A stretch of DNA of 24,000 nt from Anaerolineae bacterium (GTDB lineage: Bacteria > Chloroflexota > Anaerolineae > Caldilineales > Caldilineaceae): assembly GCA_030432295.1 (NCBI GenBank), contig JAUIHI010000004.1, positions 185,706-209,705 of the forward strand, given 5' to 3'. This document shows, piece after piece, positions 3,118-14,982 of this stretch. A model generated the notes under the pieces. That model ran no database searches. It saw only the letters and a list, made by a program, of their open reading frames with translations, and was not told the origin of the DNA. The first letter of the stretch is position 1. Every line of letters starts with the position of its first letter. Both the position numbers and the translations under genes were made by a program.

Positions 3118-4482
3118 GTGCCCCAAACCCAATCCAATCGACCGAATGTGATTGTCTTCTTCACCGACCAGCAGCGCTGGGACAGTACCGGCGTCCACGG
3201 CAATCCCCTGGACTTGACGCCCAACTTCGACCGCATGGCCCGCCAGGGAACCCATCTGCACACGACCGTCACCTGCCAGCCCGTCTGCGGACCGGCCCGT
3301 TCCTGTCTGCAAACCGGGATGTATGCCACCAACACTGGCTCCTGGCGCAACGGCATCCCCCTGCGCCAGGATTTGCAAACGATGGCCCATTTCTTCGCGG
3401 CAGGCGGCTACGACACCGGCTATATCGGCAAGTGGCATCTGGCCGACAACCAGTACGAGGGCGCTGTGCCCCCGGAGCAGCGGGGCGGCTACGACTACTG
3501 GCTGGCCTCCAATCTGCTCGAATTCACCTCCGATGCCTACGATATGGTGATGTATGACAACGACCAGCAGCGGGTGAAACTGCCCGGCTATCGGGTGGAT
3601 GCGCAGACCGACGCAGTGATCCGCTATATCGACAGCCACCAGGAAAACCCCTTCTTTCTCTTCATCTCCTATATCGAACCCCACCACCAGAACCATCTGG
3701 ACGACTACCCGCCGCCCGACGGCTACCGGGAGCGCTATGCGGGCCGCTGGACGCCGCCGGATTTGGCCGCGCTGGGCGGTTCCAGCCAGCAACATTTGGG
3801 CGGCTATTGGGGAATGATCAAGCGGCTGGACGAGGCATTGGGCCGGATGACCGACAGCCTGAAAAGTCTGGGGATGCTGGACAACACCGTCATCCTCTAC
3901 ACGACGGATCACGGCAGCCACTTCAAAACCCGCAACAGTGAGTACAAACGCTCCTGTCACGAGGCGTCTGTGCGTCTGCCCACGGCCATCACTGGCCCAG
4001 GCTTCACCGGCGGTGGCGAAATTCGGGAGATGATCAGTCTGGTCGATCTGCCCCCCACACTCCTGGACGCGGCGGGGCTGCCCATTCCGGAGCAGATGGA
4101 GGGGCGCTCGGTGCTGCCACTGGTCAATCGGCAGGCGGTGGACTGGCCGGAAGAGGCTTTTATCCAAATCAGCGAATCGCAGGTGGGGCGGGCCGTGCGC
4201 ACAAAGCGCTGGAAATACGGGGTCACCGCGCCGGACAAGGGGGGCAGCCAGCACTCCGGCTCGGACGAATATGTGGAGCAGTATCTCTACGATCTGGAAT
4301 TCGACCCTTACGAACTAACCAATCTAATCGGCTGGGAGAGCCACCGCCAGGCCAGCGATGTACTGAAGGCGCGGCTGATCCGCCGGATGGTGGAGGCGGG
4401 GGAAGCTGCGCCGGTCATCCACAACGCGCCCTCTATCCCCAAAGGCCAGCGCAAGGTGAGCGAAGCGGAGGCGTATTCCTAA
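3118..4482 (+). CDS. Cys-type sulfatase (arylsulfatase family), no signal peptide
   Basis: N-terminal PNVIVFFTDQQRWD metal-binding motif. Formylglycine signature C-x-P-x-R is present as VCGPARSCLQTG, with Cys codon tgc at 3286-3288. Also GYIGKWHL and LYTTDHG motifs. GTG start is preceded by AAAGGAGAG. No hydrophobic leader. Confidence 0.9.
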   Translation: MPQTQSNRPNVIVFFTDQQRWDSTGVHGNPLDLTPNFDRMARQGTHLHTTVTCQPVCGPARSCLQTGMYATNTGSWRNGIPLRQDLQTMAHFFAAGGYDTGYIGKWHLADNQYEGAVPPEQRGGYDYWLASNLLEFTSDAYDMVMYDNDQQRVKLPGYRVDAQTDAVIRYIDSHQENPFFLFISYIEPHHQNHLDDYPPPDGYRERYAGRWTPPDLAALGGSSQQHLGGYWGMIKRLDEALGRMTDSLKSLGMLDNTVILYTTDHGSHFKTRNSEYKRSCHEASVRLPTAITGPGFTGGGEIREMISLVDLPPTLLDAAGLPIPEQMEGRSVLPLVNRQAVDWPEEAFIQISESQVGRAVRTKRWKYGVTAPDKGGSQHSGSDEYVEQYLYDLEFDPYELTNLIGWESHRQASDVLKARLIRRMVEAGEAAPVIHNAPSIPKGQRKVSEAEAYS

Positions 4483-4929: not shown

Positions 4930-7446
4930 ATGTATGCAGTTCGTCATGTGAGGTGGGTTATTCTATGCATCGTCTTTCTGCTGGGAAGCAGGAATTTGGC
5001 TGGTGCCGTTCCGGTGGGTGGCGAAGCCGACGAGTGGGATGACCGCTTCGGCTTTCCATCTATCGAGTATGGCGCTGTGCGCGCCATCACCGGGGATGGC
5101 GAAAATCTTTATGTGGGGGGCAACTTCACCAGCGCGGGGATTCTGCCCGCCAACAATGTGGCCCGCTGGGATGGCCGCCGCTGGCACCCGTTGGGCACAG
5201 GCATCAACGGTTATGTCTATGCCCTGGCGATCTTCGACAGCAAACTCTATGCAGGCGGTGATTTTACCCAGGCCGGAAGCGTCGAGGTCAACGGTCTCGC
5301 GGTCTGGGATGGCCTAGGCTGGTCAGCCGTGGGATATGGGGCGGGGGCCATGCAGGGCGCATACAAAGGCGTTGTGCGCGCCCTGGCCGTAGCCGACGAC
5401 GCCCTCTACATTGGCGGCGACTTCACCTCCTTCAACGACCTGTCCACCCTGGACATTGTGCGCTGGGACGGACGCAAGCTGACTTCTCTGGGCGATGGCC
5501 TGGGGGATGTGGATTACAACGGCACGATGGATGCCTCCGGCTATGGGAGCATCTACGCTCTGGCTGTCGGGCCGGATGGCACTCTCTATGCCAGCGGCGA
5601 TTTTACCTCTGCGGGCAATCAGCAACCGCTGTTGGTCAACAGTATAGCCCGCTGGGACGGTCGCCGCTGGGAAGCGCTAGGCAGCGGTGTCGAGAAGTCG
5701 TATGGCAAAGGCGAAGTGCGTGCCCTGGCCGTGGACGAAGAGGGCGCGCTATATGCGGGCGGCCAGTTCGCGAAGGCGGGCGGTGAGATAGCCACTTCCA
5801 TTGCCCAGTGGGATGGGAAAGGCTGGCAGCCTGTGGGCCGGGGCGTGGGTATCGATTCGGCCTACAGCTATGTGAGCAGCCTGGCGGTGGTGGACGACGC
5901 CCTCTATGCCGGTGGGGGGATGGCAAGCATTGGGGGCAAAAAAGTGGCGGGGTTGGCCGTCTGGCAGAGGCAGAGATGGACAGGCGTGGGCGACGGGCTG
6001 CGGGATAGCTACGACGGCGTGCTGGCCCTGCACCCGGACGGCGCGGGCGGCCTCTATGCGGGCGGGTCATTTACGGGGACAGACGAACTCTTCAGCCCCA
6101 ATCTGGCCCACTGGACTGGTGACGAGTGGGAAGCGCTGGGGCAGGGACTGGGCTACGGCTCGACCAGTGGCCGGGTGGAAGCGCTGGGGCAGGGATTAGG
6201 CCACGGCTCGACCAGTGGCCGGGTGGAAGCGCTGGGGCAGGGATTAGGCCACGGCTCGACCAGTGGCCGGGTGGAAGCGCTGGTTGTGGATGCCGATGGG
6301 CTGGTCTATGCTGGCGGCAGCTTTGACAGCGCCGCGGGCAAACCTGTACAGAATATCGCGGTCTGGGATGGCCGCCAGTGGGACGCATTGGATGAGGGTG
6401 TCAACGGATCGGTCCTTGCCCTGGCCGCGTACGGCTCCAAAATCTATGTGGGCGGATCCTTCACCAAAGCCGGGGGCACAGGGGCCAGGTACATCGCCCA
6501 ATACGACAGAGTCACCGGGCGCTGGAGTAGCCTGGAGAGCGGCGTCAACGGTTATGTGCGCGCCCTGGCTGTGACGGCAGATGGCACGCTCTATGTGGCC
6601 GGGGATTTCACCGCAGCGGGTGCGTCCACTGCCAGTTACGTAGGCCAGTGGGATGGCAAGAATTGGGCTGCCCTCGGCAAAGGCATCGAACCCAACGGCA
6701 GCGTGCGCGCCCTGGCCTGGGATGGGCGCAATCTCTTTTTGGGCGGTTCTTTCAGCACAGTTGAAGAGGGCCACGAGCAGGTGACGGTCAACGGGCTGCT
6801 GATCTGGGACAGCCAGACCGACGAACGCTACTCTCTCAGCCGGGGCGACAACGTGGGCGTGACCCGGCTGGGCACTTTCGCTGAATTCAGTGGAGAAGTC
6901 TATGCCCTGGCCGTGACGGAGAGCGCTCTGTATGTGGGGGGTGTCTTTGACAGCACAGGCGGTGTGGCCGCCCGAGGCGTGGCAACCTTTGACTTTGACG
7001 AGGGCTGGCAGGCATTGGGCGAGAGTGTGAGCAGCACCGACACGCCCTATGTGTACAGCCTGGCCGTGTCGCCAGATGGCCTCTTTGCCGGTGGCGAGTT
7101 CACCGCGGCGGGGAGAGCACAGACATCTTCCCTGGCCCGCTGGGATGGAGAACGGAAGCAGTGGGAAGGGCTGGGCAACGGATTAAGCCCAGGCGCAAGT
7201 GTCAGGGCACTGGCAGTTTTCGGCGACTCTCTCTATGTGGGTGGGCAATTCGTCTCGGCCGGGACTTCCCCCGCATCCGCCTTTGCCCGCTGGGGGCCAC
7301 CTGTGCAGGTGCAACTAACCCAATCCCAGGTTCTGGGCCGCTATGCCATGCCAACACCCACGCCCACCCCCTGTGCTATCCGTCCGGTGACAGGCGGCGG
7401 TGTGGGTGGTCAAGCCGTTCCCTGTGGGCTACCCTCCCGGCGCTAG
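4930..7446 (+). CDS. secreted beta-propeller repeat protein (about 13-14 blades)
   Basis: Sec-type leader MYAVRHVRWVILCIVFLLGSRNLAGA. It contains 13-14 copies of a blade of about 55 aa with pattern (I/V)A(R/Q/V)WDGxxWxxLGxGxxGxVxALAVxxxxLYVGGxFTxAGG. The C-terminal tail is PTPTPTP followed by a Gly-rich stretch. Confidence 0.85.
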   Translation: MYAVRHVRWVILCIVFLLGSRNLAGAVPVGGEADEWDDRFGFPSIEYGAVRAITGDGENLYVGGNFTSAGILPANNVARWDGRRWHPLGTGINGYVYALAIFDSKLYAGGDFTQAGSVEVNGLAVWDGLGWSAVGYGAGAMQGAYKGVVRALAVADDALYIGGDFTSFNDLSTLDIVRWDGRKLTSLGDGLGDVDYNGTMDASGYGSIYALAVGPDGTLYASGDFTSAGNQQPLLVNSIARWDGRRWEALGSGVEKSYGKGEVRALAVDEEGALYAGGQFAKAGGEIATSIAQWDGKGWQPVGRGVGIDSAYSYVSSLAVVDDALYAGGGMASIGGKKVAGLAVWQRQRWTGVGDGLRDSYDGVLALHPDGAGGLYAGGSFTGTDELFSPNLAHWTGDEWEALGQGLGYGSTSGRVEALGQGLGHGSTSGRVEALGQGLGHGSTSGRVEALVVDADGLVYAGGSFDSAAGKPVQNIAVWDGRQWDALDEGVNGSVLALAAYGSKIYVGGSFTKAGGTGARYIAQYDRVTGRWSSLESGVNGYVRALAVTADGTLYVAGDFTAAGASTASYVGQWDGKNWAALGKGIEPNGSVRALAWDGRNLFLGGSFSTVEEGHEQVTVNGLLIWDSQTDERYSLSRGDNVGVTRLGTFAEFSGEVYALAVTESALYVGGVFDSTGGVAARGVATFDFDEGWQALGESVSSTDTPYVYSLAVSPDGLFAGGEFTAAGRAQTSSLARWDGERKQWEGLGNGLSPGASVRALAVFGDSLYVGGQFVSAGTSPASAFARWGPPVQVQLTQSQVLGRYAMPTPTPTPCAIRPVTGGGVGGQAVPCGLPSRR
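6130..6283 (+). repeat. in-frame 48-bp tandem repeat, 3.2 copies, inside the propeller gene
   Basis: Units lie at 6130-6177, 6178-6225 and 6226-6273, with a partial fourth at 6274-6283. Units 2 and 3 are identical over 48/48 nt. Unit 1 differs at 3 nt (CTG to TTA, synonymous; TAC to CAC, Y to H). The encoded peptide is EALGQGLG(Y/H)GSTSGRV, three times. Confidence 0.95.
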
Positions 7447-8047: not shown

Positions 8048-10480
8048 CTATGCCCGTGCGTGTTGCGACTCGACCGGCGGCTGGTAGACGACCGCCAGAT
8101 GGGGCGTCTCCAGCCGCTGGTGCTCCTGTGCTTTGGAGGTCAGGCAGCTTTCCAGCACGCCGCTGACCAGCAGTGTGCGCTCGGCGGGGAAAGGCGCAAC
8201 GCCTGTTGCAAACATCTCCTCTATTTTGCCCACCAGACAGGCCGAGTAGGTGACATTCGGGCCGGGGGTGAGGAAGAATTGGGTGGAGACCGGCTTTTCC
8301 TCACCGGCCAGGCGGGCGGCAAAGCAGAAATCCTTGAGCGCTCCGTTGAGCATCAGCAGTGTGGCCTGCAGGCCGTCGTTGTATTCGATGCAGTAGGCCG
8401 CAGGGTTTTCCACCAGTTTGTATAGCTCACCGCTGCCCAGCAAATCCTGGGTGCGCCCGTCTTCATCGCTCAGTCCCCGGGGCGAATCGCTACGCGAAAG
8501 CGCTGCTTCCAGCAGTTCCATCGACCAGCGCCCCTCCCGTCCCGCCTGCCAGACCGCCTCACCTTCCAGCAGTTGGACAGCCCGCACGCCGCTCTCCCCC
8601 CCGGCCCGCCGCTCCAGCATACACTGCATAGCTTCCAGCGCGTGGTAGTCCATCGGGTCCGAGCCGCCCACGCCTACCATCAGCGCCTCGTCAACTACGC
8701 AGCCCAGAGGCAATTCCACATCGGGCAGCCGCCAGGTGACAGGCAGGGAAGAACCAGCCAGCAATGGGAATCCGAGCCGGTGAGCGTCATCCACCATCTC
8801 CGCGGCCTTTGTGTAACTATACGAAAGATGCTTGTCGTTGTAGATCGGCACAACCCGGCCATCCGCCTCAAAGACTTCCACGCACTGCACGAAGAAGTCG
8901 TGGCGGGGGTAGAGTATCTGGCCCAGATCGTTGCGGGGATAGTCGCCGTGCTCCACTACCAGCATCACCCCATCCACGGCCAGCTTCTCGCCACCACAGC
9001 GCAGGGCCTCGGCAATCGTCGGGTAGATGTCAAAGCCGAACTCCCGTGCCCGGTCGATGCTCTGATCCCCCACCGGCTGCTGGTCCACGTAGAGGGAGAC
9101 GATCTCCACGTTGGGCCGATGCCAGCGCCCATCCACGGGATAGCCGGTCAGCCAGCGGTCGCAGAAGTGCTGGGCGTGGGAGCGCAGGCGGTAGATGGAG
9201 GCGATGACCGCAATGCGCAGGGGCGGCGCGGGCGGGGGTGGCAATTGGGGGCGGGATGATTGGGGCGTGGGCAACAGATGGACCCGATCCTCCCGCCAGA
9301 AGGTGGACTCGGCTGTGGGCTGGTAGGCGATGGCCAGATGGGGCGTCTCGATGCGAGTCTGCTCTGCGTGCAGACTCTCGATGCCCGCGGCATTGAGGCC
9401 AGTGGTGAGCAGTGTGCGTTCCAGCGGATAGGTCGGCTCGCCGGTCAAAAACATCTGCTCCACCGCGTGGACCTGGGGCGAGAAGAAGTTGGCCAAAGTT
9501 GAGCGGGCTGGCGGCATAGGCAGATACATTTGGGTGGAGAAGGGTTCGCTCTGTCCGTCCAGATGCGCGGCAAAATTGAAGTCCTGCACCAGCCCGCTGA
9601 ACAGAATCATCGTGGAACGGAGGCCGTCGTTGTGCTCGTAGTGGTAGGCAACCGGGTCTTTGACCAATTCCCGCATCTCATCGCCGGTGGGGAAATTGTT
9701 GTTGAATCCGGGTCGGCTCGGTGTCAGTGTGTGGCTGCGGCTGAGCGCGGCTTCGAAAAGTTCCCGTGACCAGACGCCTGCGTGATGGGCCTCCCAGAAG
9801 GCGTCGCCCCGGTAGGACTGCACCCAACGCACGCCGGTCTCGCCCCCGACCCGGCGCTCCACCATACATTGCAGGGTTTCCAGGGCGTGAAAGTCGTAGC
9901 TGTCCACCCCGCCGTAGCCGATGACCAGCGCTTCCCGCACAGACGCGCCCAGGGGCATATCGACGGAAGGGGTGCGCCAGGTCACAGGCAGGGAGGAACC
10001 GGCCATAAAGGCAAAGCCCATCGACTGCGCGGTCTCGGCCATCTCTTTGGCCCATTCCCATTTCCAGGAAAGGTGCTTGTCGTTGAAGATGGGGGCCGTG
10101 CGTCCGGTCATGCGATAGACGGCCACAATCTCTTTGAAGAGTTCGTAGCGGGGGTAGAGATGCTGGCCCTTTTCGTTGTAGGGGTATTCGCCGTGCTCGC
10201 CGATGAGTAGTACACCGTCCACAGCCAGGCTCTCCGTGCCCAGAGTCAGGGCATCTGCCACAGTTGGGTAGAGTTGCATGGACGGGAAGCGGCTGCTGCG
10301 CTCCTGGGCTAAATCGTTCTCGCCTATCTGATCCACATAGGCAGAGACCAAATCCATAGGTGGGTGGTGGTGGCGGTTGTCCCAGCCATAGCCTTCCAGA
10401 AAGCGGTCGATGAAGTGCTGGGCGTGGGCGTATTTGCGGACAACTGTGCAGATGATGGCGATTTTCGGTCGTTGCGGCAT
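8048..10480 (-). CDS. uncharacterised two-module protein: tandem duplication of an about 400-aa Gfo/Idh/MocA-like (glycine-motif-less) unit
   Basis: The two halves align end to end at about 45% identity by eye. Half 1 reads KIAIICTVVRKYAHAQHFIDRFLEGY...LAVDGVLLIGEHGEYP...PIFNDKHLSWKW...MAGSSLPVTWR...YDFHALETLQCMVERRVGGETGVRWVQ...ETPHLAIAYQP. Half 2 reads RIAVIASIYRLRSHAQHFCDRWLTGY...LAVDGVMLVVEHGDYP...PIYNDKHLSYSY...LAGSSLPVTWR...MDYHALEAMQCMLERRAGGESGVRAVQ...ETPHLAVVYQP. The halves are joined by a Pro-rich linker, PQLPPPPAPP, at about 9216-9260. The start is moved to ATG 10480 (MPQRPKIAII), preceded by CAGGAGtctccc. The upstream 65 codons of the track ORF look non-coding. Confidence 0.8.
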   Translation of the reverse strand: MPQRPKIAIICTVVRKYAHAQHFIDRFLEGYGWDNRHHHPPMDLVSAYVDQIGENDLAQERSSRFPSMQLYPTVADALTLGTESLAVDGVLLIGEHGEYPYNEKGQHLYPRYELFKEIVAVYRMTGRTAPIFNDKHLSWKWEWAKEMAETAQSMGFAFMAGSSLPVTWRTPSVDMPLGASVREALVIGYGGVDSYDFHALETLQCMVERRVGGETGVRWVQSYRGDAFWEAHHAGVWSRELFEAALSRSHTLTPSRPGFNNNFPTGDEMRELVKDPVAYHYEHNDGLRSTMILFSGLVQDFNFAAHLDGQSEPFSTQMYLPMPPARSTLANFFSPQVHAVEQMFLTGEPTYPLERTLLTTGLNAAGIESLHAEQTRIETPHLAIAYQPTAESTFWREDRVHLLPTPQSSRPQLPPPPAPPLRIAVIASIYRLRSHAQHFCDRWLTGYPVDGRWHRPNVEIVSLYVDQQPVGDQSIDRAREFGFDIYPTIAEALRCGGEKLAVDGVMLVVEHGDYPRNDLGQILYPRHDFFVQCVEVFEADGRVVPIYNDKHLSYSYTKAAEMVDDAHRLGFPLLAGSSLPVTWRLPDVELPLGCVVDEALMVGVGGSDPMDYHALEAMQCMLERRAGGESGVRAVQLLEGEAVWQAGREGRWSMELLEAALSRSDSPRGLSDEDGRTQDLLGSGELYKLVENPAAYCIEYNDGLQATLLMLNGALKDFCFAARLAGEEKPVSTQFFLTPGPNVTYSACLVGKIEEMFATGVAPFPAERTLLVSGVLESCLTSKAQEHQRLETPHLAVVYQPPVESQHARA

Positions 10481-10684
10481 GGGAGACTCCTGGGGGATGG
10501 ATGGCTTTGCGCTAAAAAATGGACACTGATGGCGCGGAAAGGAATGATTGACGCTGATAATCTCTGCGTGATTTGCGTCCCTTCTATCGGGCATACTGGC
10601 TGCGTCGCAGAGAAGTATAGCCAATTGAGGCTGCGAAGGAAAGCCGGGCTTTCGCCAGAATTGGCCGCAGCCCAATTCCTCCGG

Positions 10685-10713
10685 TTGACGAATTCACTGT
10701 TTGAGAATACCAT
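10685..10713 (+). promoter_or_regulatory. candidate sigma70-type promoter for the 10795 gene
   Basis: TTGACG (10685-10690), a 17-nt spacer, then TACCAT (10708-10713), about 80 nt upstream of ATG 10795. This is a sequence match only. Confidence 0.3.
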
Positions 10714-10794
10714 TCAGCAGGCCAAACGACGGCTGCTGCGGTCCGCGTTCCGTCGTCTGCGGTCAACAAAAAATCAACCGAAAGGGTTTGACTG

Positions 10795-11658
10795 ATGAGA
10801 CTTGGCATTGTGGGGATGTTGCCCGGCGACTTTCGTACTTTTCAGCGGGAGCAGATGCAGGCGATTCGCGACCTGAGCTTCACCGGCTTCGGCTTCCACC
10901 TGAACGGGGATGACGTTTTCGCCATCACACAGGCGGAGTGTGCAGCCGGTCGCCGCTTTTTCGCCGACGAGGAATTGGACCTGGCCCAGTTCGCCATCAC
11001 CTACAACGAATGTCTCTTCCATCCCGACCGGGCCGTGCGCGAACGGGTGACGGCGAAGATCGTCCGGGGCACGGAGATTGCGGCCCAATTGGGCGCACAG
11101 GCCTTCCTACTGCGTCCCGGCAGCCTGAACCCGGACGGTCCCTGGACGCCCCACCGGGACAACCACCGACCCGAATGCGCGGAACTGCTGGTGGAGACTC
11201 TGCGCCCGTTGGCCGCCAAAGCCGAAGCCGAAGGCGTCGTCCTGGCGATGGAAACCCACGCGCTTTCGATTCTGGACCTGCCGCCGAAGTGTCGGAGGAT
11301 TGTGGAGGCTGTTGATTCGCCCAACCTGCGCCTGATTCTGGATGCGGTCAACCATTTTCAGTCTATGCACCAGGTCTACAACAGCAGCGATTGGGTCAAC
11401 CACATCTTCGACGAACTGGGGCCGATTGCGCCTCTGGCCCACATCAAAGACCTGAAAGTCTCCAACGGACTGGTGCTGCACATCGACCAGACTGTGCCGA
11501 GGGAAGGGGAGTTGGATTCGGCGCTGGTGCTCCAACGCTTCGACGCACTCTATCCCAACGGCTATGGCCTCATCGAGCATCTGCCCCTGGAAAAGATTCC
11601 CCAGGCCGTCGCCAATGTGCGCCGCATCGCCGCCGAAGCCGGTGTTGTCATCCATTGA
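10795..11658 (+). CDS. sugar phosphate isomerase/epimerase, xylose-isomerase-like TIM barrel
   Basis: 287 aa with family-typical stretches: IRDLSFTGFGFHL, AAQLGAQAFLLRPGS, VVLAMETHA, NLRLILDAVNH and AHIKDL. Confidence 0.8.
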   Translation: MRLGIVGMLPGDFRTFQREQMQAIRDLSFTGFGFHLNGDDVFAITQAECAAGRRFFADEELDLAQFAITYNECLFHPDRAVRERVTAKIVRGTEIAAQLGAQAFLLRPGSLNPDGPWTPHRDNHRPECAELLVETLRPLAAKAEAEGVVLAMETHALSILDLPPKCRRIVEAVDSPNLRLILDAVNHFQSMHQVYNSSDWVNHIFDELGPIAPLAHIKDLKVSNGLVLHIDQTVPREGELDSALVLQRFDALYPNGYGLIEHLPLEKIPQAVANVRRIAAEAGVVIH

Positions 11659-11783
11659 CAAACCTATTCCAGCAGAGATGAAACGTTATTTTTTAACGCA
11701 GAGGAGAACCCATACATCTTTGCATCTCTGCACCTTTGCATCTTTGCGTTGAAAATTTCACCATCATTTTGATCACTACAGAT

Positions 11784-11818
11784 CAATCCGTGTTCCTTCC
11801 TATCCGTGTATACAAAAC
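11784..11818 (+). repeat. 35-bp ATCCGTGT-N10-ATCCGTGT-TACAAA element, copy A
   Basis: caatccgtgttccttcctatccgtgtatacaaaac. It is 29/35 identical to the reverse complement of 14130-14164 and similar to 14174-14208. It lies 43 nt upstream of ATG 11861. Confidence 0.7.
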
Positions 11819-11860
11819 ATAGACACACAAGTTCATCCACCCACGAAAGAGACAATCCCA

Positions 11861-12994
11861 ATGCCCGCAACCGACGACATCTACACCCAACTGGGCATTC
11901 AGCCCGTCATCAATGCCACCGGCCACGTGACGATTCTGGGCGGCTCGGTGCTTTCTCCCGGCGTGCAGGCGGCAATGACCGCGGCCAACCGCTCCTTCGC
12001 CGCGATGGAAGATGTCCACAACCGCACGGGCGCGCTCATCGCCGGGAAGCTGGGCGTGGAAAATGCGGTGGTCACCTCCGGCTGCTACGCTGCGCTGGTG
12101 CAGGGCGCAGCGGGGATTCTGGCCGGCACAGACCCGGAGCGCATCGGTCGCCTGCCCGATACCACCGGCATCCCCAACGAATTTCTGATCCAGGCCGCCA
12201 CCCGCTACCGCTACGACCGCGCGGTGACGACCCCCGGCGGCAAACTGGTGGAGGTGGGGGACAGCAATGGCACAACAGCCGAACAGCTACGCGCAGCCAT
12301 CGGCCCCCAGACCGCGGGTATCCTTTTCTATGCCAAAGGCGAAAGCACGCCCAATACACTGAAACTGGCACAAGTCGTAGAAATCGCCCACGCCGCGGGT
12401 GTGCAGGTGCTGGTGGACGCGGCGGGCGAGGTCTATCCCCTGGAACGGATGCACGGGGTGGCGGGCAGCGGAGCGGACCTGATCTGCTTTGGCGGCAAAT
12501 ATATGGGTGCGGGCAACTCGACCGGCATCCTTTGCGGCAAAAACGAAGCGGTGCTGGCGGCCCGGCGCAACGGCTTTGTCAGCTACGAGACGGAGAACAA
12601 CCGCAGCGTGGGCCGGGGCTACAAAATCGACCGCCAGGAGGTGATTGGCACGACCGTCGCCCTGACCGAGTGGCTGGAAATGGACCACGAACAGCGCTTG
12701 CAGAGCCAGGCCGAGCGCATCGGTTTTCTGGCTGAAGGCCTGGCCGATCTGCCCCACATCTCCGCCCGCAATGTGTGGGACGAGGAGGGTGGGCCGTGGA
12801 TGCGTCTGCGTCTGGAGTGGGACAGCGCCACGGTCGGCAAAAGCGCAGCGGAGGTCTCGGCAGCCCTGCGCAACGGGTCGCCGGTGGTCTGGGCGCGGGC
12901 CGAGGGAGACGTCATTCCCATCTCCGTACATACACTTTCCGAGGAAGAGTTGCCGATCCTTCTGGGCCGCCTGCGCGAGGAATTGGCCCGATAA
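11861..12994 (+). CDS. SelA-like / DgaE-like PLP-dependent enzyme (fold-type I), not a true selenocysteine synthase
   Basis: N-terminus DIYTQLGIQPVINATGHVTILGGS. Candidate PLP-lysine motif DLICFGGKYMGAGNSTGIL, with Lys codon aaa at 12497-12499. At 377 aa it is too short to carry the SelA N-terminal tRNA-binding domain. Confidence 0.75.
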   Translation: MPATDDIYTQLGIQPVINATGHVTILGGSVLSPGVQAAMTAANRSFAAMEDVHNRTGALIAGKLGVENAVVTSGCYAALVQGAAGILAGTDPERIGRLPDTTGIPNEFLIQAATRYRYDRAVTTPGGKLVEVGDSNGTTAEQLRAAIGPQTAGILFYAKGESTPNTLKLAQVVEIAHAAGVQVLVDAAGEVYPLERMHGVAGSGADLICFGGKYMGAGNSTGILCGKNEAVLAARRNGFVSYETENNRSVGRGYKIDRQEVIGTTVALTEWLEMDHEQRLQSQAERIGFLAEGLADLPHISARNVWDEEGGPWMRLRLEWDSATVGKSAAEVSAALRNGSPVVWARAEGDVIPISVHTLSEEELPILLGRLREELAR

Positions 12995-13018
12995 GTGCTG
13001 TAGTTCAGGTAATTATTG

Positions 13019-13080
13019 GTAGGGGCGCTTGCTTGCTGCGCCCGCTGTGGGACACGGGCGCAGCAAGCAAGCGCCCCTAC
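13019..13080. repeat. perfect 25-bp-arm palindrome (REP-like element / strong hairpin)
   Basis: gtaggggcgcttgcttgctgcgccc (13019-13043), a 12-nt loop, then gggcgcagcaagcaagcgcccctac (13056-13080). It lies 25 nt after stop 12994 and 53 nt before ATG 13134. No U-tract follows. Confidence 0.85.
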
Positions 13081-13133
13081 AGGACAAATCGTTGTCGGGA
13101 TAACACTGGCCCACAAGACGAGGAAAATCACTG

Positions 13134-14102
13134 ATGCTGGAAAAAGTACGTGTGGGAATGATCGGCGCGGGGGGTATGGCAAATCGGGTCCACTACCCGT
13201 CCCTGGCCTCTTTTGCCGATGTGGAGATCGCGGCCATCTGCGATCTGGACGAGGCGCGGCTGACTACAACCGCCGACAAATACGGGGTGCAAGGACGCTA
13301 CAACGACTACCAAAAAATGGTCGAGGAGGTCGCGCCCGATGCGGTCTACGCCATTGGACCGCCCCATCTGCTATACGACGTCTGGCAGTGGTGCTTGAGC
13401 CAGGGGCTGAATCTCTGCATCGAAAAGCCGATGGGCATCACTATGCACCAGGCCCGCTCCCTGGCCCATCTGGCCGATCGCCACGGCTGCATCACCCAAG
13501 TCAGCTTCCAGCGGCGCAGTTCGCCGCTACTGGTCCACCTGCACGCCCAGTGTCTGGACAGAGGGCCGATCGTCCACGCCCAGTCTACTTTCTTCAAATG
13601 CGAGATCGATCCGTACCTCCACGCCCGGGACCGGATGCTGGACGACGGCGTACATTCCATCGACACCCTGCGCTGGCTGTGTGGCGGCGAAGTCGTCAAT
13701 GTCCAAAGTCTGACCAAACGGGTGCAGGTTCCCGACATCAACTTCCTCTCCGCGCTGCTCGAATTCGACAACGGCGCGACGGGCATTTTGGTCAACAGTT
13801 GGACCAGCGGACGGCGCATTTTCAAGGTTGAGGCCCACGCGCCGGGTATCTGTATGGAGGCCAACCCGGAGGGCAAAGGCCATCTACACGCGGATGGCGA
13901 CACCACAGGTGTGGAGTACGAGACCCGACAGGTGGCAGGCAGCGACGAATTCTATATTTACGGCGGTTTTCAGGCCAAGAACCGGGAGTTCATCGACGGG
14001 GTGAAGAACCACACATTGCCCCCTTCCCACTTTGGCGATGCGCTGAAAACAATGGAAGTAGCCGAAATCATTCTGGCCCAGGCGTTGCTGGCCGGGCGCT
14101 AG
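13134..14102 (+). CDS. Gfo/Idh/MocA family NAD(P)-dependent oxidoreductase
   Basis: Rossmann motif VRVGMIGAGGMANRVHYPSL, conserved CIEKP motif and a C-terminal alpha/beta domain. The RBS GAGGAA lies 8 nt upstream. Confidence 0.9.
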   Translation: MLEKVRVGMIGAGGMANRVHYPSLASFADVEIAAICDLDEARLTTTADKYGVQGRYNDYQKMVEEVAPDAVYAIGPPHLLYDVWQWCLSQGLNLCIEKPMGITMHQARSLAHLADRHGCITQVSFQRRSSPLLVHLHAQCLDRGPIVHAQSTFFKCEIDPYLHARDRMLDDGVHSIDTLRWLCGGEVVNVQSLTKRVQVPDINFLSALLEFDNGATGILVNSWTSGRRIFKVEAHAPGICMEANPEGKGHLHADGDTTGVEYETRQVAGSDEFYIYGGFQAKNREFIDGVKNHTLPPSHFGDALKTMEVAEIILAQALLAGR

Positions 14103-14129
14103 GCCAAATCGATGACGTGCTCGCTATTT

Positions 14130-14208
14130 CTTTTGTAAACACGGATGAGAAGAAACACGGATAGCTTTGAACCCTATCCATGTTTCTTCTCATCCGTGCT
14201 TACAAATT
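14130..14208. repeat. inverted pair of the 35-bp ATCCGTGT element (copies B and C), forming a hairpin of about 33 bp
   Basis: Left arm cttttgtaaacacggatgagaagaaacacggatag (14130-14164), loop ctttgaacc, right arm ctatccatgtttcttctcatccgtgcttacaaatt (14174-14208). The arms are complementary apart from 2 internal mismatches, plus mismatches at the outer 2 nt. The pair sits between stop 14102 and start 14236/14239. Confidence 0.8.
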
Positions 14209-14235
14209 TCTATCTGATATTGCATAAGGAGAAAA

Positions 14236-14982
14236 GTGATGGTCAAGCAATTGAAATTACGCCTGCGATCCCACGTGCTGGACCACAACGAGCGGGGCTG
14301 GGCCGTCTGGCGGGAAGAGATCGCCGAGCGTTCCCTGCCCGCGGATCGGGTTGCTATCGTCATCTGCGATATGTGGGATCAGCACTGGAGTCGGGGTGCG
14401 GTCGAGCGGGTTGGCGAGATGGTTCCCCGGATGGAGGCGGTGCTGGCCGCGGCCCGGGCGAAGGGCGTCCACATTATCCACGCGCCGTCGGAGACAATGG
14501 AATTCTACACGGATCACTCGGCCCGTCAGCGCATTCTGGCCCTGCCGCCTGTCGAGCCACCGCCCAACCGGGAACTCCCTGATCCGCCCTCGCCCATCGA
14601 CGACCGGGACGGCGGCTCGGATACGGGCGAGCCAGAGATGTCCCAGGTGTGGACCCGCCAGCATGCGGGGCTGACGATTGACCCGGAACGGGATGTGATC
14701 TCGGACAACGGGCGGGAGGTCTACAGCTATCTGCGCCATCACGCCATCGAACAGGTGCTGATAATGGGGGTGCATACAAATATGTGTATCCTGCGCCGCT
14801 CCTTCGCTATCAAACAGATGGTGAAATGGGGGCAAGAAATCGCACTGGTGCGGGACCTGACCGACACAATGTACAACCCGGCCAGCGCCCCGTATGTGAG
14901 CCACGACGAGGGAACCCAACTGGTCATCGGCTATATCGAACGCTTCTGGTGTCCGTCGGTTTCCAGCGGGGAGATAAGCTAA
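14236..14982 (+). CDS. isochorismatase-like cysteine hydrolase family protein with a Pro/Asp-rich insertion
   Basis: VAIVICDMWDQHW (catalytic-Asp region) and VLIMGVHTNMCILRRS (nucleophile-Cys region). An insertion of about 45 aa, LPPVEPPPNRELPDPPSPIDDRDGGSDTGEPE, lies between them. The track start is GTG 14236. ATG 14239 has better spacing to AGGAG (14227-14231). Confidence 0.7.
   Translation: MMVKQLKLRLRSHVLDHNERGWAVWREEIAERSLPADRVAIVICDMWDQHWSRGAVERVGEMVPRMEAVLAAARAKGVHIIHAPSETMEFYTDHSARQRILALPPVEPPPNRELPDPPSPIDDRDGGSDTGEPEMSQVWTRQHAGLTIDPERDVISDNGREVYSYLRHHAIEQVLIMGVHTNMCILRRSFAIKQMVKWGQEIALVRDLTDTMYNPASAPYVSHDEGTQLVIGYIERFWCPSVSSGEIS

Follow-up and report, generated by a model that had tools for sequence, protein, structure and literature searches.

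Several described systems share parts with the locus analyzed here. DgaE (DGL), the ammonia-lyase of D-glucosaminate-6-phosphate, is a pyridoxal phosphate (PLP) enzyme in which His162 and His163 are strictly conserved and include the C3 proton donor (PMC9529869). In Pseudoalteromonas, OngB and OngC convert N-acetylglucosaminate (GlcNAc1A) via glucosaminate (GlcN1A) to 2-keto-3-deoxygluconate (KDG) and NH3, with OngB acting as the deacetylase and OngC as the deaminase (PMC9537276). For haloarchaea, a route for N-acetylglucosamine (GlcNAc) was predicted in which a DgaE homolog occurs together with a glucose dehydrogenase and a galactonate dehydratase in chitinase clusters (PMC12343721). Dehydrogenases of the Gfo/Idh/MocA family (hereafter Gfo) are combined with xylose-isomerase-like triosephosphate isomerase (TIM) barrel proteins in the 3-keto-glycoside and levoglucosan routes, represented by LgdA/LgdB, DgpA/DgpBC, BT_2157-2159, YcjS/YcjR and Agrobacterium AtHYD. 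Neither a PLP lyase nor an isochorismatase-like hydrolase is, to our knowledge, a known part of these routes. Genes of all four families stand next to each other in the window, i.e. the whole analyzed stretch of 24,000 nucleotides (contig C39:185706-209705) from the 6.7 Mb genome of an Anaerolineae bacterium (Caldilineaceae, Chloroflexota). A preliminary description had placed them in a six-gene catabolic cluster, which resolves into a genus-specific module of four genes on the + strand (10795-14982) and unrelated neighbors. The four genes stood as a unit; the inclusion of a fused gene and of a sulfatase gene, as well as the conservation of the cluster beyond the genus, did not.

The families of the window genes were assigned with Pfam and NCBIfam models, which confirmed all four enzyme families at the positions given for them beforehand. 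The first gene of the module encodes a xylose-isomerase-like TIM barrel protein of the AP_endonuc_2 family (10795-11658, 287 amino acids (AA); PF01261 with 84.2 bits at a cut-off of 31.1). It is followed by the genes of a SelA/DgaE-family PLP enzyme (SelA/Aminotran_5; 11861-12994, 377 AA), a canonical Gfo NAD(P)-dependent sugar dehydrogenase (13134-14102, 322 AA; PF01408 with 78.5 bits and PF22725 with 42 bits) and an isochorismatase-like protein with a cysteine-hydrolase fold from an uncharacterized subfamily (14236-14982, 248 AA; PF00857 with 36.7 bits at a cut-off of 27).

The comparison within the genus bears out the earlier view that these four genes behave as a unit. The order TIM barrel, DgaE-like enzyme, Gfo (where present) and hydrolase is kept in four other assemblies of the same genus (L007, L008, L009 and L020/21), and the flanks of the module are different in all of them, comprising a STAND NTPase, major facilitator superfamily (MFS) transporters, a dihydroxy-acid dehydratase and a patatin. 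In one of these relatives, genes for a LacI regulator, a solute-binding protein and a glycosidase of glycoside hydrolase family 42 (GH42) lie immediately downstream. The genes are tightly spaced in the relatives: Gfo and the hydrolase gene, without the inverted repeat pair that lies between them in the window, are 8-16 nt apart, and where Gfo is missing, the hydrolase gene follows the DgaE-like gene after 26 nt. Since order and tight spacing are kept despite completely reshuffled flanks, the arrangement shows the pattern expected of a selected unit. In one relative (genome G415, L008:1041-5393), the TIM barrel and DgaE-like genes are separated by an open reading frame (ORF) of 1450 AA without a Pfam match, which stops 13 nt short of the DgaE-like start.

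The internal gaps of the module in the window are wider (133-202 nt) because a dispersed element resembling repetitive extragenic palindromic (REP) sequences lies in each of them. These are an ATCCGTG dyad between the TIM barrel and DgaE-like genes (11784-11818), the GC-rich palindrome GTAGGGGC...GCCCCTAC between the DgaE-like and Gfo genes (13019-13080) and an inverted pair of the ATCCGTG element between the Gfo and hydrolase genes (14130-14208). Promoter-like sites on the + strand were found solely upstream of the TIM barrel gene, at 10520-10548 and 10685-10713 in the divergent intergenic region (10481-10794) that separates it from the fused gene. No terminator-like site was found in the three internal gaps, and the only one in the module (11936-11948) lies inside the DgaE-like coding sequence. 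This distribution of sites weakly supports one transcription unit. Taken with the conserved gene order, it suggests that the four genes are probably an operon-like, co-transcribed module restricted to this genus.

Judged by sequence comparison, the nearest characterized relative of the PLP enzyme in the window is DGL/DgaE. Its PDB sequence matches include the uncharacterized structure 8t7j (E = 7e-41), for which the literature search returned no paper, and the Salmonella DgaE 7lc0 (E = 5e-38). The likeness to DgaE comprises membership in the SelA-related PLP family, a full-length alignment, a lysine in the PLP-binding motif, two arginines of the phosphate site and a basic residue at the position that binds the alpha-carboxylate. 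For this comparison, the catalytic residues named in PMC9529869 were traced in a HMMER alignment. A lysine is present at the expected PLP-binding motif SG(x)K, where the window protein reads FGGKYM and DgaE reads YSGAKAF, with a register shift of one residue in the alignment. We infer that this lysine of the GGK motif binds PLP. At the phosphate site, which would accommodate a distal anion, the protein retains Arg301 and Arg332 but has His in place of Arg346, and the carboxylate-binding Arg226 is replaced by Lys. The substrate may be unphosphorylated or carry another anionic group. The phosphotransferase system (PTS) permease, the 2-keto-3-deoxy-6-phosphogluconate (KDPG)-type aldolase DgaF and the sigma-54 regulator that belong to DgaE systems have no counterparts among the genes of the window. 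The protein is probably a beta-eliminating ammonia-lyase or deaminase whose substrate would be a related 2-amino acid bearing a distal anionic group.

The Gfo protein has the GAGGMA glycine-rich loop, the EKP motif and a Gly-Val-His-Ser-Ile-Asp stretch, together with both Pfam domains. Its best curated matches are far below their cut-offs (iolG with 91.5 bits at a cut-off of 355, UDP-GlcNAc 3-dehydrogenase with 83.5 at 450). In the TIM barrel protein, E153, D183, H216 and E261 are invariant in 20 homologs and are putative metal ligands. No NCBIfam match and no PDB sequence match were obtained for this protein. Its AlphaFold2 (AF2) model has a confidence (pLDDT) of 93, and the nearest folds are those of ketose 3-epimerases, UlaE, YcjR and AtHYD, with template modeling (TM) scores of 0.69-0.75 at about 15% identity.

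The hydrolase belongs to a subfamily with 5465 members at E <= 0.001, and look-alike clusters were found in Verrucomicrobiota, Latescibacterota, Gemmatimonadota and Armatimonadota. D45 (CDMW) and the nucleophile C184 (HTNMC) are invariant; other conserved features are R141-Q142-H143 and the acidic loop PIDDxDGGSDTGE. The subfamily shares PF00857, the cysteine and the N-terminal aspartate with isochorismatase-like hydrolases such as PncA, RutB, N-carbamoylsarcosine amidase and the biuret hydrolase 6azo, but differs from them by the lack of a conserved lysine and by its acidic insert and R-Q-H motif. The PDB sequence search gave a single marginal match (E = 0.03). Within the searchable library, the literature search found no paper that combines isochorismatase, Gfo, TIM barrel and ThuA.

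Based on these assignments, it is tentatively proposed, at a probability of roughly 0.42, that the module enzymes jointly act in the cytoplasm on an amino sugar or amino-sugar acid and yield a 2-keto-3-deoxy acid. All steps of the chemistry are conjectural. Gfo would first oxidize the sugar with NAD(P)+, most economically at C1 of a free or N-acylated hexosamine, which would give an aminoaldonolactone. The enzyme with the cysteine-hydrolase fold would then open the lactone or remove the N-acyl group. The DgaE-like enzyme would eliminate water and ammonia from the resulting 2-amino-2-deoxy-aldonate, probably one with a distal anionic group, to form the 2-keto-3-deoxy acid, and the metal-dependent TIM barrel enzyme would epimerize or isomerize a keto intermediate. 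The fused gene and the sulfatase are outside this pathway.

The proposed chemistry is similar to that of the Ong pathway, where deacylation of an N-acetyl-aminoaldonate is followed by deamination, which yields 2-keto-3-deoxygluconate and NH3 as in D-amino-acid catabolism. This likeness is one of function only, by description, and the window differs in having no lytic polysaccharide monooxygenase (LPMO), transporter, KdgK or regulator. The haloarchaeal route (PMC12343721), which is itself a prediction, is comparable in that a DgaE-family enzyme is found next to sugar dehydrogenases or aldonate dehydratases in an amino-sugar context. If the proposal is true, it would show how some Chloroflexota of aquaculture, sludge and sediment communities use amino sugars, for instance those released from chitin or glycosaminoglycans, as carbon and nitrogen sources, through an oxidative route like that of D-amino acids. 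Three large uncharacterized subfamilies would also receive their first functions, namely the DgaE relative without the His-His motif, the isochorismatase-like proteins without the lysine and the TIM barrel. As a lead, the four-gene module is modest.

The results that weigh against this proposal concern both the individual enzymes and the conservation of their linkage. The PLP enzyme is only about 30% identical to DgaE and scores below the curated cut-offs (TIGR01437 with 188 bits at a cut-off of 385.3, NF047797 with 160 at 600). His162 and His163 of DgaE are replaced by Gly and Glu (AKGEST in the window protein, KSHHCV in 7lc0). The low curated scores and the residue changes together make it a member of the DgaE family and not a DgaE equivalog. 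The label SelA/DgaE-like used in the preliminary description consequently holds for the family and the full-length alignment, but not for the His-His motif of true DgaE. For Gfo, no curated NCBIfam specificity model fits, and the oxidation may take place at C1 or at C3. The fold matches of the TIM barrel protein are generic, with sugar epimerases, isomerases and hydratases matching about equally well. In the hydrolase, no invariant lysine was found within about 85 residues upstream of C184, as would be needed for an Asp-Lys-Cys triad. The preliminary description had correctly stated that the region 8048-14982 contains no transporter, kinase or regulator; in the whole window, no gene for a transporter, kinase, aldolase or regulator was found. 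Moreover, in two genomes of the same genus, Gfo is missing from the module and was found nowhere else in the genome at E <= 1e-70.

For the conservation beyond the genus, each of the four module proteins was searched against 121 genomes of one family. Homologs of the DgaE-like protein were found in 81 genomes, of the hydrolase in 42 and of Gfo, at E <= 1e-70, in 15. True orthologs of the TIM barrel protein (at least 79% identity) are confined to the genus of the window; the remaining matches are 37-51% identical, and most of them are no closer than a paralog in the same genome. Linkage of the four genes was not found outside the genus. In no genome there was the hydrolase gene adjacent to the DgaE-like gene, and the distance between the two in complete genomes is typically in the range of megabases. 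DgaE-like and TIM-like genes are present in genus g185 (32 genomes), which lacks orthologs of the hydrolase and Gfo, genus g180 has the hydrolase and Gfo and lacks the TIM barrel ortholog, and genus g182 has homologs of all four genes, each on a separate contig. The gene neighborhood called for as a check is thus kept in the four other assemblies of the genus and fails in all other genera among the 121 genomes, where sub-pairs only occur.

This pattern is also evidence for an alternative explanation, in which the four enzymes share no common pathway. In that case, the module would be a lineage-specific juxtaposition of genes that are perhaps co-transcribed for convenience, in which the partners of the DgaE-like protein would be aldonate enzymes from other loci, and a keto sugar would be the substrate of the Gfo-hydrolase pair. 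The restriction of the four-family adjacency to one genus, the differing phyletic patterns, the ability of Gfo to drop out of the module and the 1450-AA ORF that splits the TIM barrel and DgaE-like genes in one relative are all consistent with it. It is at odds with the order and tight spacing kept in the four other assemblies of the genus between completely reshuffled flanks, and with the plausibility of all four proteins as sugar or amino-sugar enzymes. Overall, this explanation is considered somewhat unlikely.

The sub-pairs found elsewhere show which parts of the module recur. Among the 13 family genomes with both Gfo and the hydrolase, the two genes stand side by side in 5 (the window's genome included) and lie 2.3 kb apart in a sixth. 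Further Chloroflexota families also have the pair (L058, and L068, where the gap is 4 nt). Clustering of the ORFs around 30 hydrolase loci gave as recurrent neighbors AP_endonuc_2 TIM barrels from a different subfamily (7 loci), D-2-hydroxyacid dehydrogenases (7), members of the Gfo cluster (6), ThuA (5) and short-chain dehydrogenases (SDRs; 3). At one hydrolase locus, NagA-like, NagB-like, GNAT and RpiB genes lie directly upstream.

The DgaE-like gene has a different set of neighbors. The most common one, at nine loci, is an enolase-superfamily gene directly upstream. This enolase falls into the branch of the acid-sugar dehydratases (174 bits with PRK14017, the model for galactonate dehydratase, at a cut-off of 311), and the DgaE-like orthologs located directly downstream of such a galactonate-dehydratase-like enolase are 62-68% identical to the window protein. 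Further neighbors are an opine-dehydrogenase-like gene, an amidohydrolase and a 6-phosphogluconate dehydrogenase (6PGDH)-like dehydrogenase, and another Gfo gene neighbors the DgaE-like gene in a metagenome-assembled genome (MAG) of Gemmatimonadota. Plasmid-borne DgaE-like genes have RidA and ABC transporters as neighbors in Rhizobium, and heparinase II/III genes in Natronococcus. Haloarchaeal plasmids carry DgaE-like homologs, and no homolog of the TIM barrel protein was found there at E <= 1e-12 in a search that covered plasmids only. The likeness to haloarchaeal gene sets is therefore taken as one of composition and not of orthology. The enolase neighbors, together with the haloarchaeal prediction (PMC12343721), support the link of the DgaE-like family to aldonate metabolism in other organisms. 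In view of these neighborhoods, the module looks young and appears to join two parts that recur separately elsewhere, namely the Gfo-hydrolase pair and a PLP enzyme of the DgaE family.

In a sister genus (32 genomes; L119-L122, L011, L012, L022 and L024), the arrangement around the DgaE-like ortholog is conserved: a galactonate-dehydratase-like enolase precedes it, and genes for an Aminotran_5 protein, a GlcD-like FAD/Fe-S oxidase and a DUF3048 protein follow. A paralog of the DgaE-like protein with 37% identity is encoded in the same genome as the window (L098, G000:C30:10000-24500), within a run of genes on one strand. This run comprises an amidohydrolase, two ABC permeases of a sugar-type transporter, a solute-binding protein, an Amidohydro_2 protein, the DgaE paralog, two AXE1 esterases and an enolase-superfamily gene. 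This locus looks like a better-equipped candidate than the module for the catabolism of an acetylated amino-sugar acid.

Another explanation, already raised in the preliminary description, is oxidation and elimination via 3-keto-glycosides. Here, Gfo would oxidize a glycoside, which may be aminated, at its C3, the TIM barrel enzyme would catalyze a beta-elimination, hydration or epimerization, and the hydrolase and PLP enzyme would process the aglycone or the amino moiety. The recurrence of the hydrolase subfamily with Gfo, AP_endonuc_2 TIM barrels and ThuA fits this route, and ThuA accompanies ThuB, which forms 3-keto-trehalose. The structural neighbors of the TIM barrel protein include the 3-keto-D-glucoside 4-epimerase YcjR and the 2-hydroxy-3-keto-glucal hydratase AtHYD at a TM score of about 0.7, and DgpA and a glucuronide 3-dehydrogenase are among the best PDB sequence matches of Gfo. 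However, Gfo reaches only 39.7 bits on the levoglucosan dehydrogenase model (cut-off 650) and 44.3 bits on BT_2158_fam (cut-off 750), i.e. 40-44 bits on models for levoglucosan and glycoside 3-dehydrogenases with cut-offs of 650-750. The TIM barrel protein has neither an NCBIfam match nor a close characterized relative, its structural matches are about 15% identical with ketose epimerases being equally good, and its true orthologs are restricted to this genus. In addition, a DgaE-type beta-eliminase has no clear role in such a route, which is regarded as quite unlikely. A biosynthetic role, in which the module would make an amino sugar, aminocyclitol or modified sugar for an envelope polymer or natural product, is very improbable: pairs of Gfo and PLP enzymes do occur in amino-sugar biosynthesis, GenD2 and KanD2 are among the Gfo-fold matches and a glycosyltransferase lies near the hydrolase in loci of genus g180, but the PLP enzyme is a member of the DgaE lyases and of no aminotransferase family, the window contains no glycosyltransferase, nucleotidyltransferase or exporter, the module adjoins the LacI regulator, solute-binding protein and GH42 gene in one relative, and the DgaE paralog lies within an operon for uptake and hydrolysis.

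A more far-reaching version of the proposed amino-sugar pathway starts from the hydrolase. The isochorismatase-like subfamily without the lysine would catalyze an undescribed reaction on oxidized sugars, either keto sugars or lactones, and would form, with a Gfo partner and often a TIM barrel protein or ThuA, a widespread module that is missing from pathway maps. In the genus of the window, it would be coupled to a DgaE relative without the His-His motif, resulting in an oxidative amino-sugar route to a 2-keto-3-deoxy acid that is independent of PTS and analogous, not homologous, to the Ong pathway. In this extended form, the proposal is unlikely. The subfamily is one of the most unusual objects of the window, the other, separate one being the family of the fused gene.

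The fused gene lies upstream of the module on the - strand. The two halves of its ORF (8048-10675) are 47% identical (E = 1e-130), which confirms the internal duplication described previously, and no Pfam or NCBIfam match was found for it. The start has been moved, as the gene likely begins at the ATG at 10480 behind a GGAG and then encodes a protein of 810 AA (8048-10480). Its family, referred to here as A/B, has at least 8000 members at E <= 0.001 in a word-index search and 2659 clusters at 50% identity in an exhaustive search. The N-terminal half is 72-80% identical to members from Planctomycetota, Acidobacteriota, Latescibacterota, Poribacteria, Armatimonadota and Chloroflexota. In all genomes examined outside the genus, the family is represented by a pair of neighboring genes of about 397 AA each, with A preceding B (for example L004:10001-12408, L006:10001-12523 and L070:7001-9387). 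The N-terminal half is 74-77% identical to the product of gene A and the C-terminal half 72-80% to that of gene B. Given the adjacent genes elsewhere and the identities of the two halves, the gene in the window is an A-B fusion, and the fusion suggests that A and B form a heterodimer.

The AF2 model of the A half has a pLDDT of 95.5, and its best Foldseek matches are all Gfo/Idh/MocA enzymes (TM score of about 0.55, 9-14% identity); GenD2 and KanD2 are among the matches that Foldseek and PDB searches gave for Gfo-fold proteins. The glycine-rich dinucleotide loop (GxGxxG) is replaced in the A/B family by a conserved T-x-Y-x-x-x-S-H-A. In a profile search, the family touches the EKP region of a member of the Gfo family, with NDKH instead of EKP. 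The fused protein thus shares only the fold with Gfo/Idh/MocA proteins.

The preliminary description had counted this duplicated gene as part of the cluster. The fusion is kept in all five other genomes of the genus with 86-90% identity, on contigs other than that of the module, and its own flanks differ as well. It was therefore rejected as a cluster member; it is an independent gene of unassigned function and no conserved part of the cluster. The neighbors of the A/B pair elsewhere vary and include a zinc-dependent alcohol dehydrogenase, PhyH, a sulfatase, peptidases and an enolase-superfamily gene. A third, unfused copy in the genome of the window (G000:C45:134295-135413; L019:9936-11162) is 42-44% identical to either half and lies directly upstream of a gene resembling zinc-dependent alcohol dehydrogenases. 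ADH_zinc_N genes also adjoin or lie near the A/B pair in L004 and L006. The A/B family is very large and highly conserved without an assigned function, and merits study apart from the module.

The cytoplasmic sulfatase noted previously is present at 3118-4482, with the formylglycine motif CGPAR and without a signal peptide. Its proposed association with the cluster did not hold. The gene is one of 26 matches of the sulfatase family in the genome, and no close copy was found beside the module in the relatives, where a weak match with 24% identity in L010 is the only one nearby. The linkage was rejected on these grounds.

The intergenic repeats were likewise rejected as shared operators or as signs of co-regulation. 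The REP-like element consists of an ATCCGTG(T)-N9-ATCCGTG dyad, often in inverted pairs, with at least 119 dyad copies across the contigs of the genome. The GC-rich perfect palindromes form a family of the structure GTAGGGGCGCT(T)GCTTGCTGCGCCC...GGGCGCAGCAAGC(A)AGCGCCCCTAC with variable loops; 26 copies of these GTAGGGGC palindromes are present in the genome, including the one at 13019-13080. Since both motifs are dispersed genome-wide, they are no cluster-specific operators. The general lesson of this locus is one of caution, as an attractive six-gene cluster fell apart when its neighborhood was compared.

The closest public matches of the window genes come from MAGs labelled Caldilineaceae and Litorilinea (Chloroflexota), and biofloc metagenomes contain identical DNA. 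Downstream of the module, beyond 14982, unrelated genes for a DedA-like protein, a CDP-alcohol phosphatidyltransferase and a seryl-tRNA synthetase (SerRS) follow on the opposite strand. Between the sulfatase and the fused gene, at 4930-7446, an 838-AA beta-propeller protein of the Rax2/DUF5122 type is encoded, in which the peptide EALGQGLGxGSTSGRV is repeated three times in tandem.

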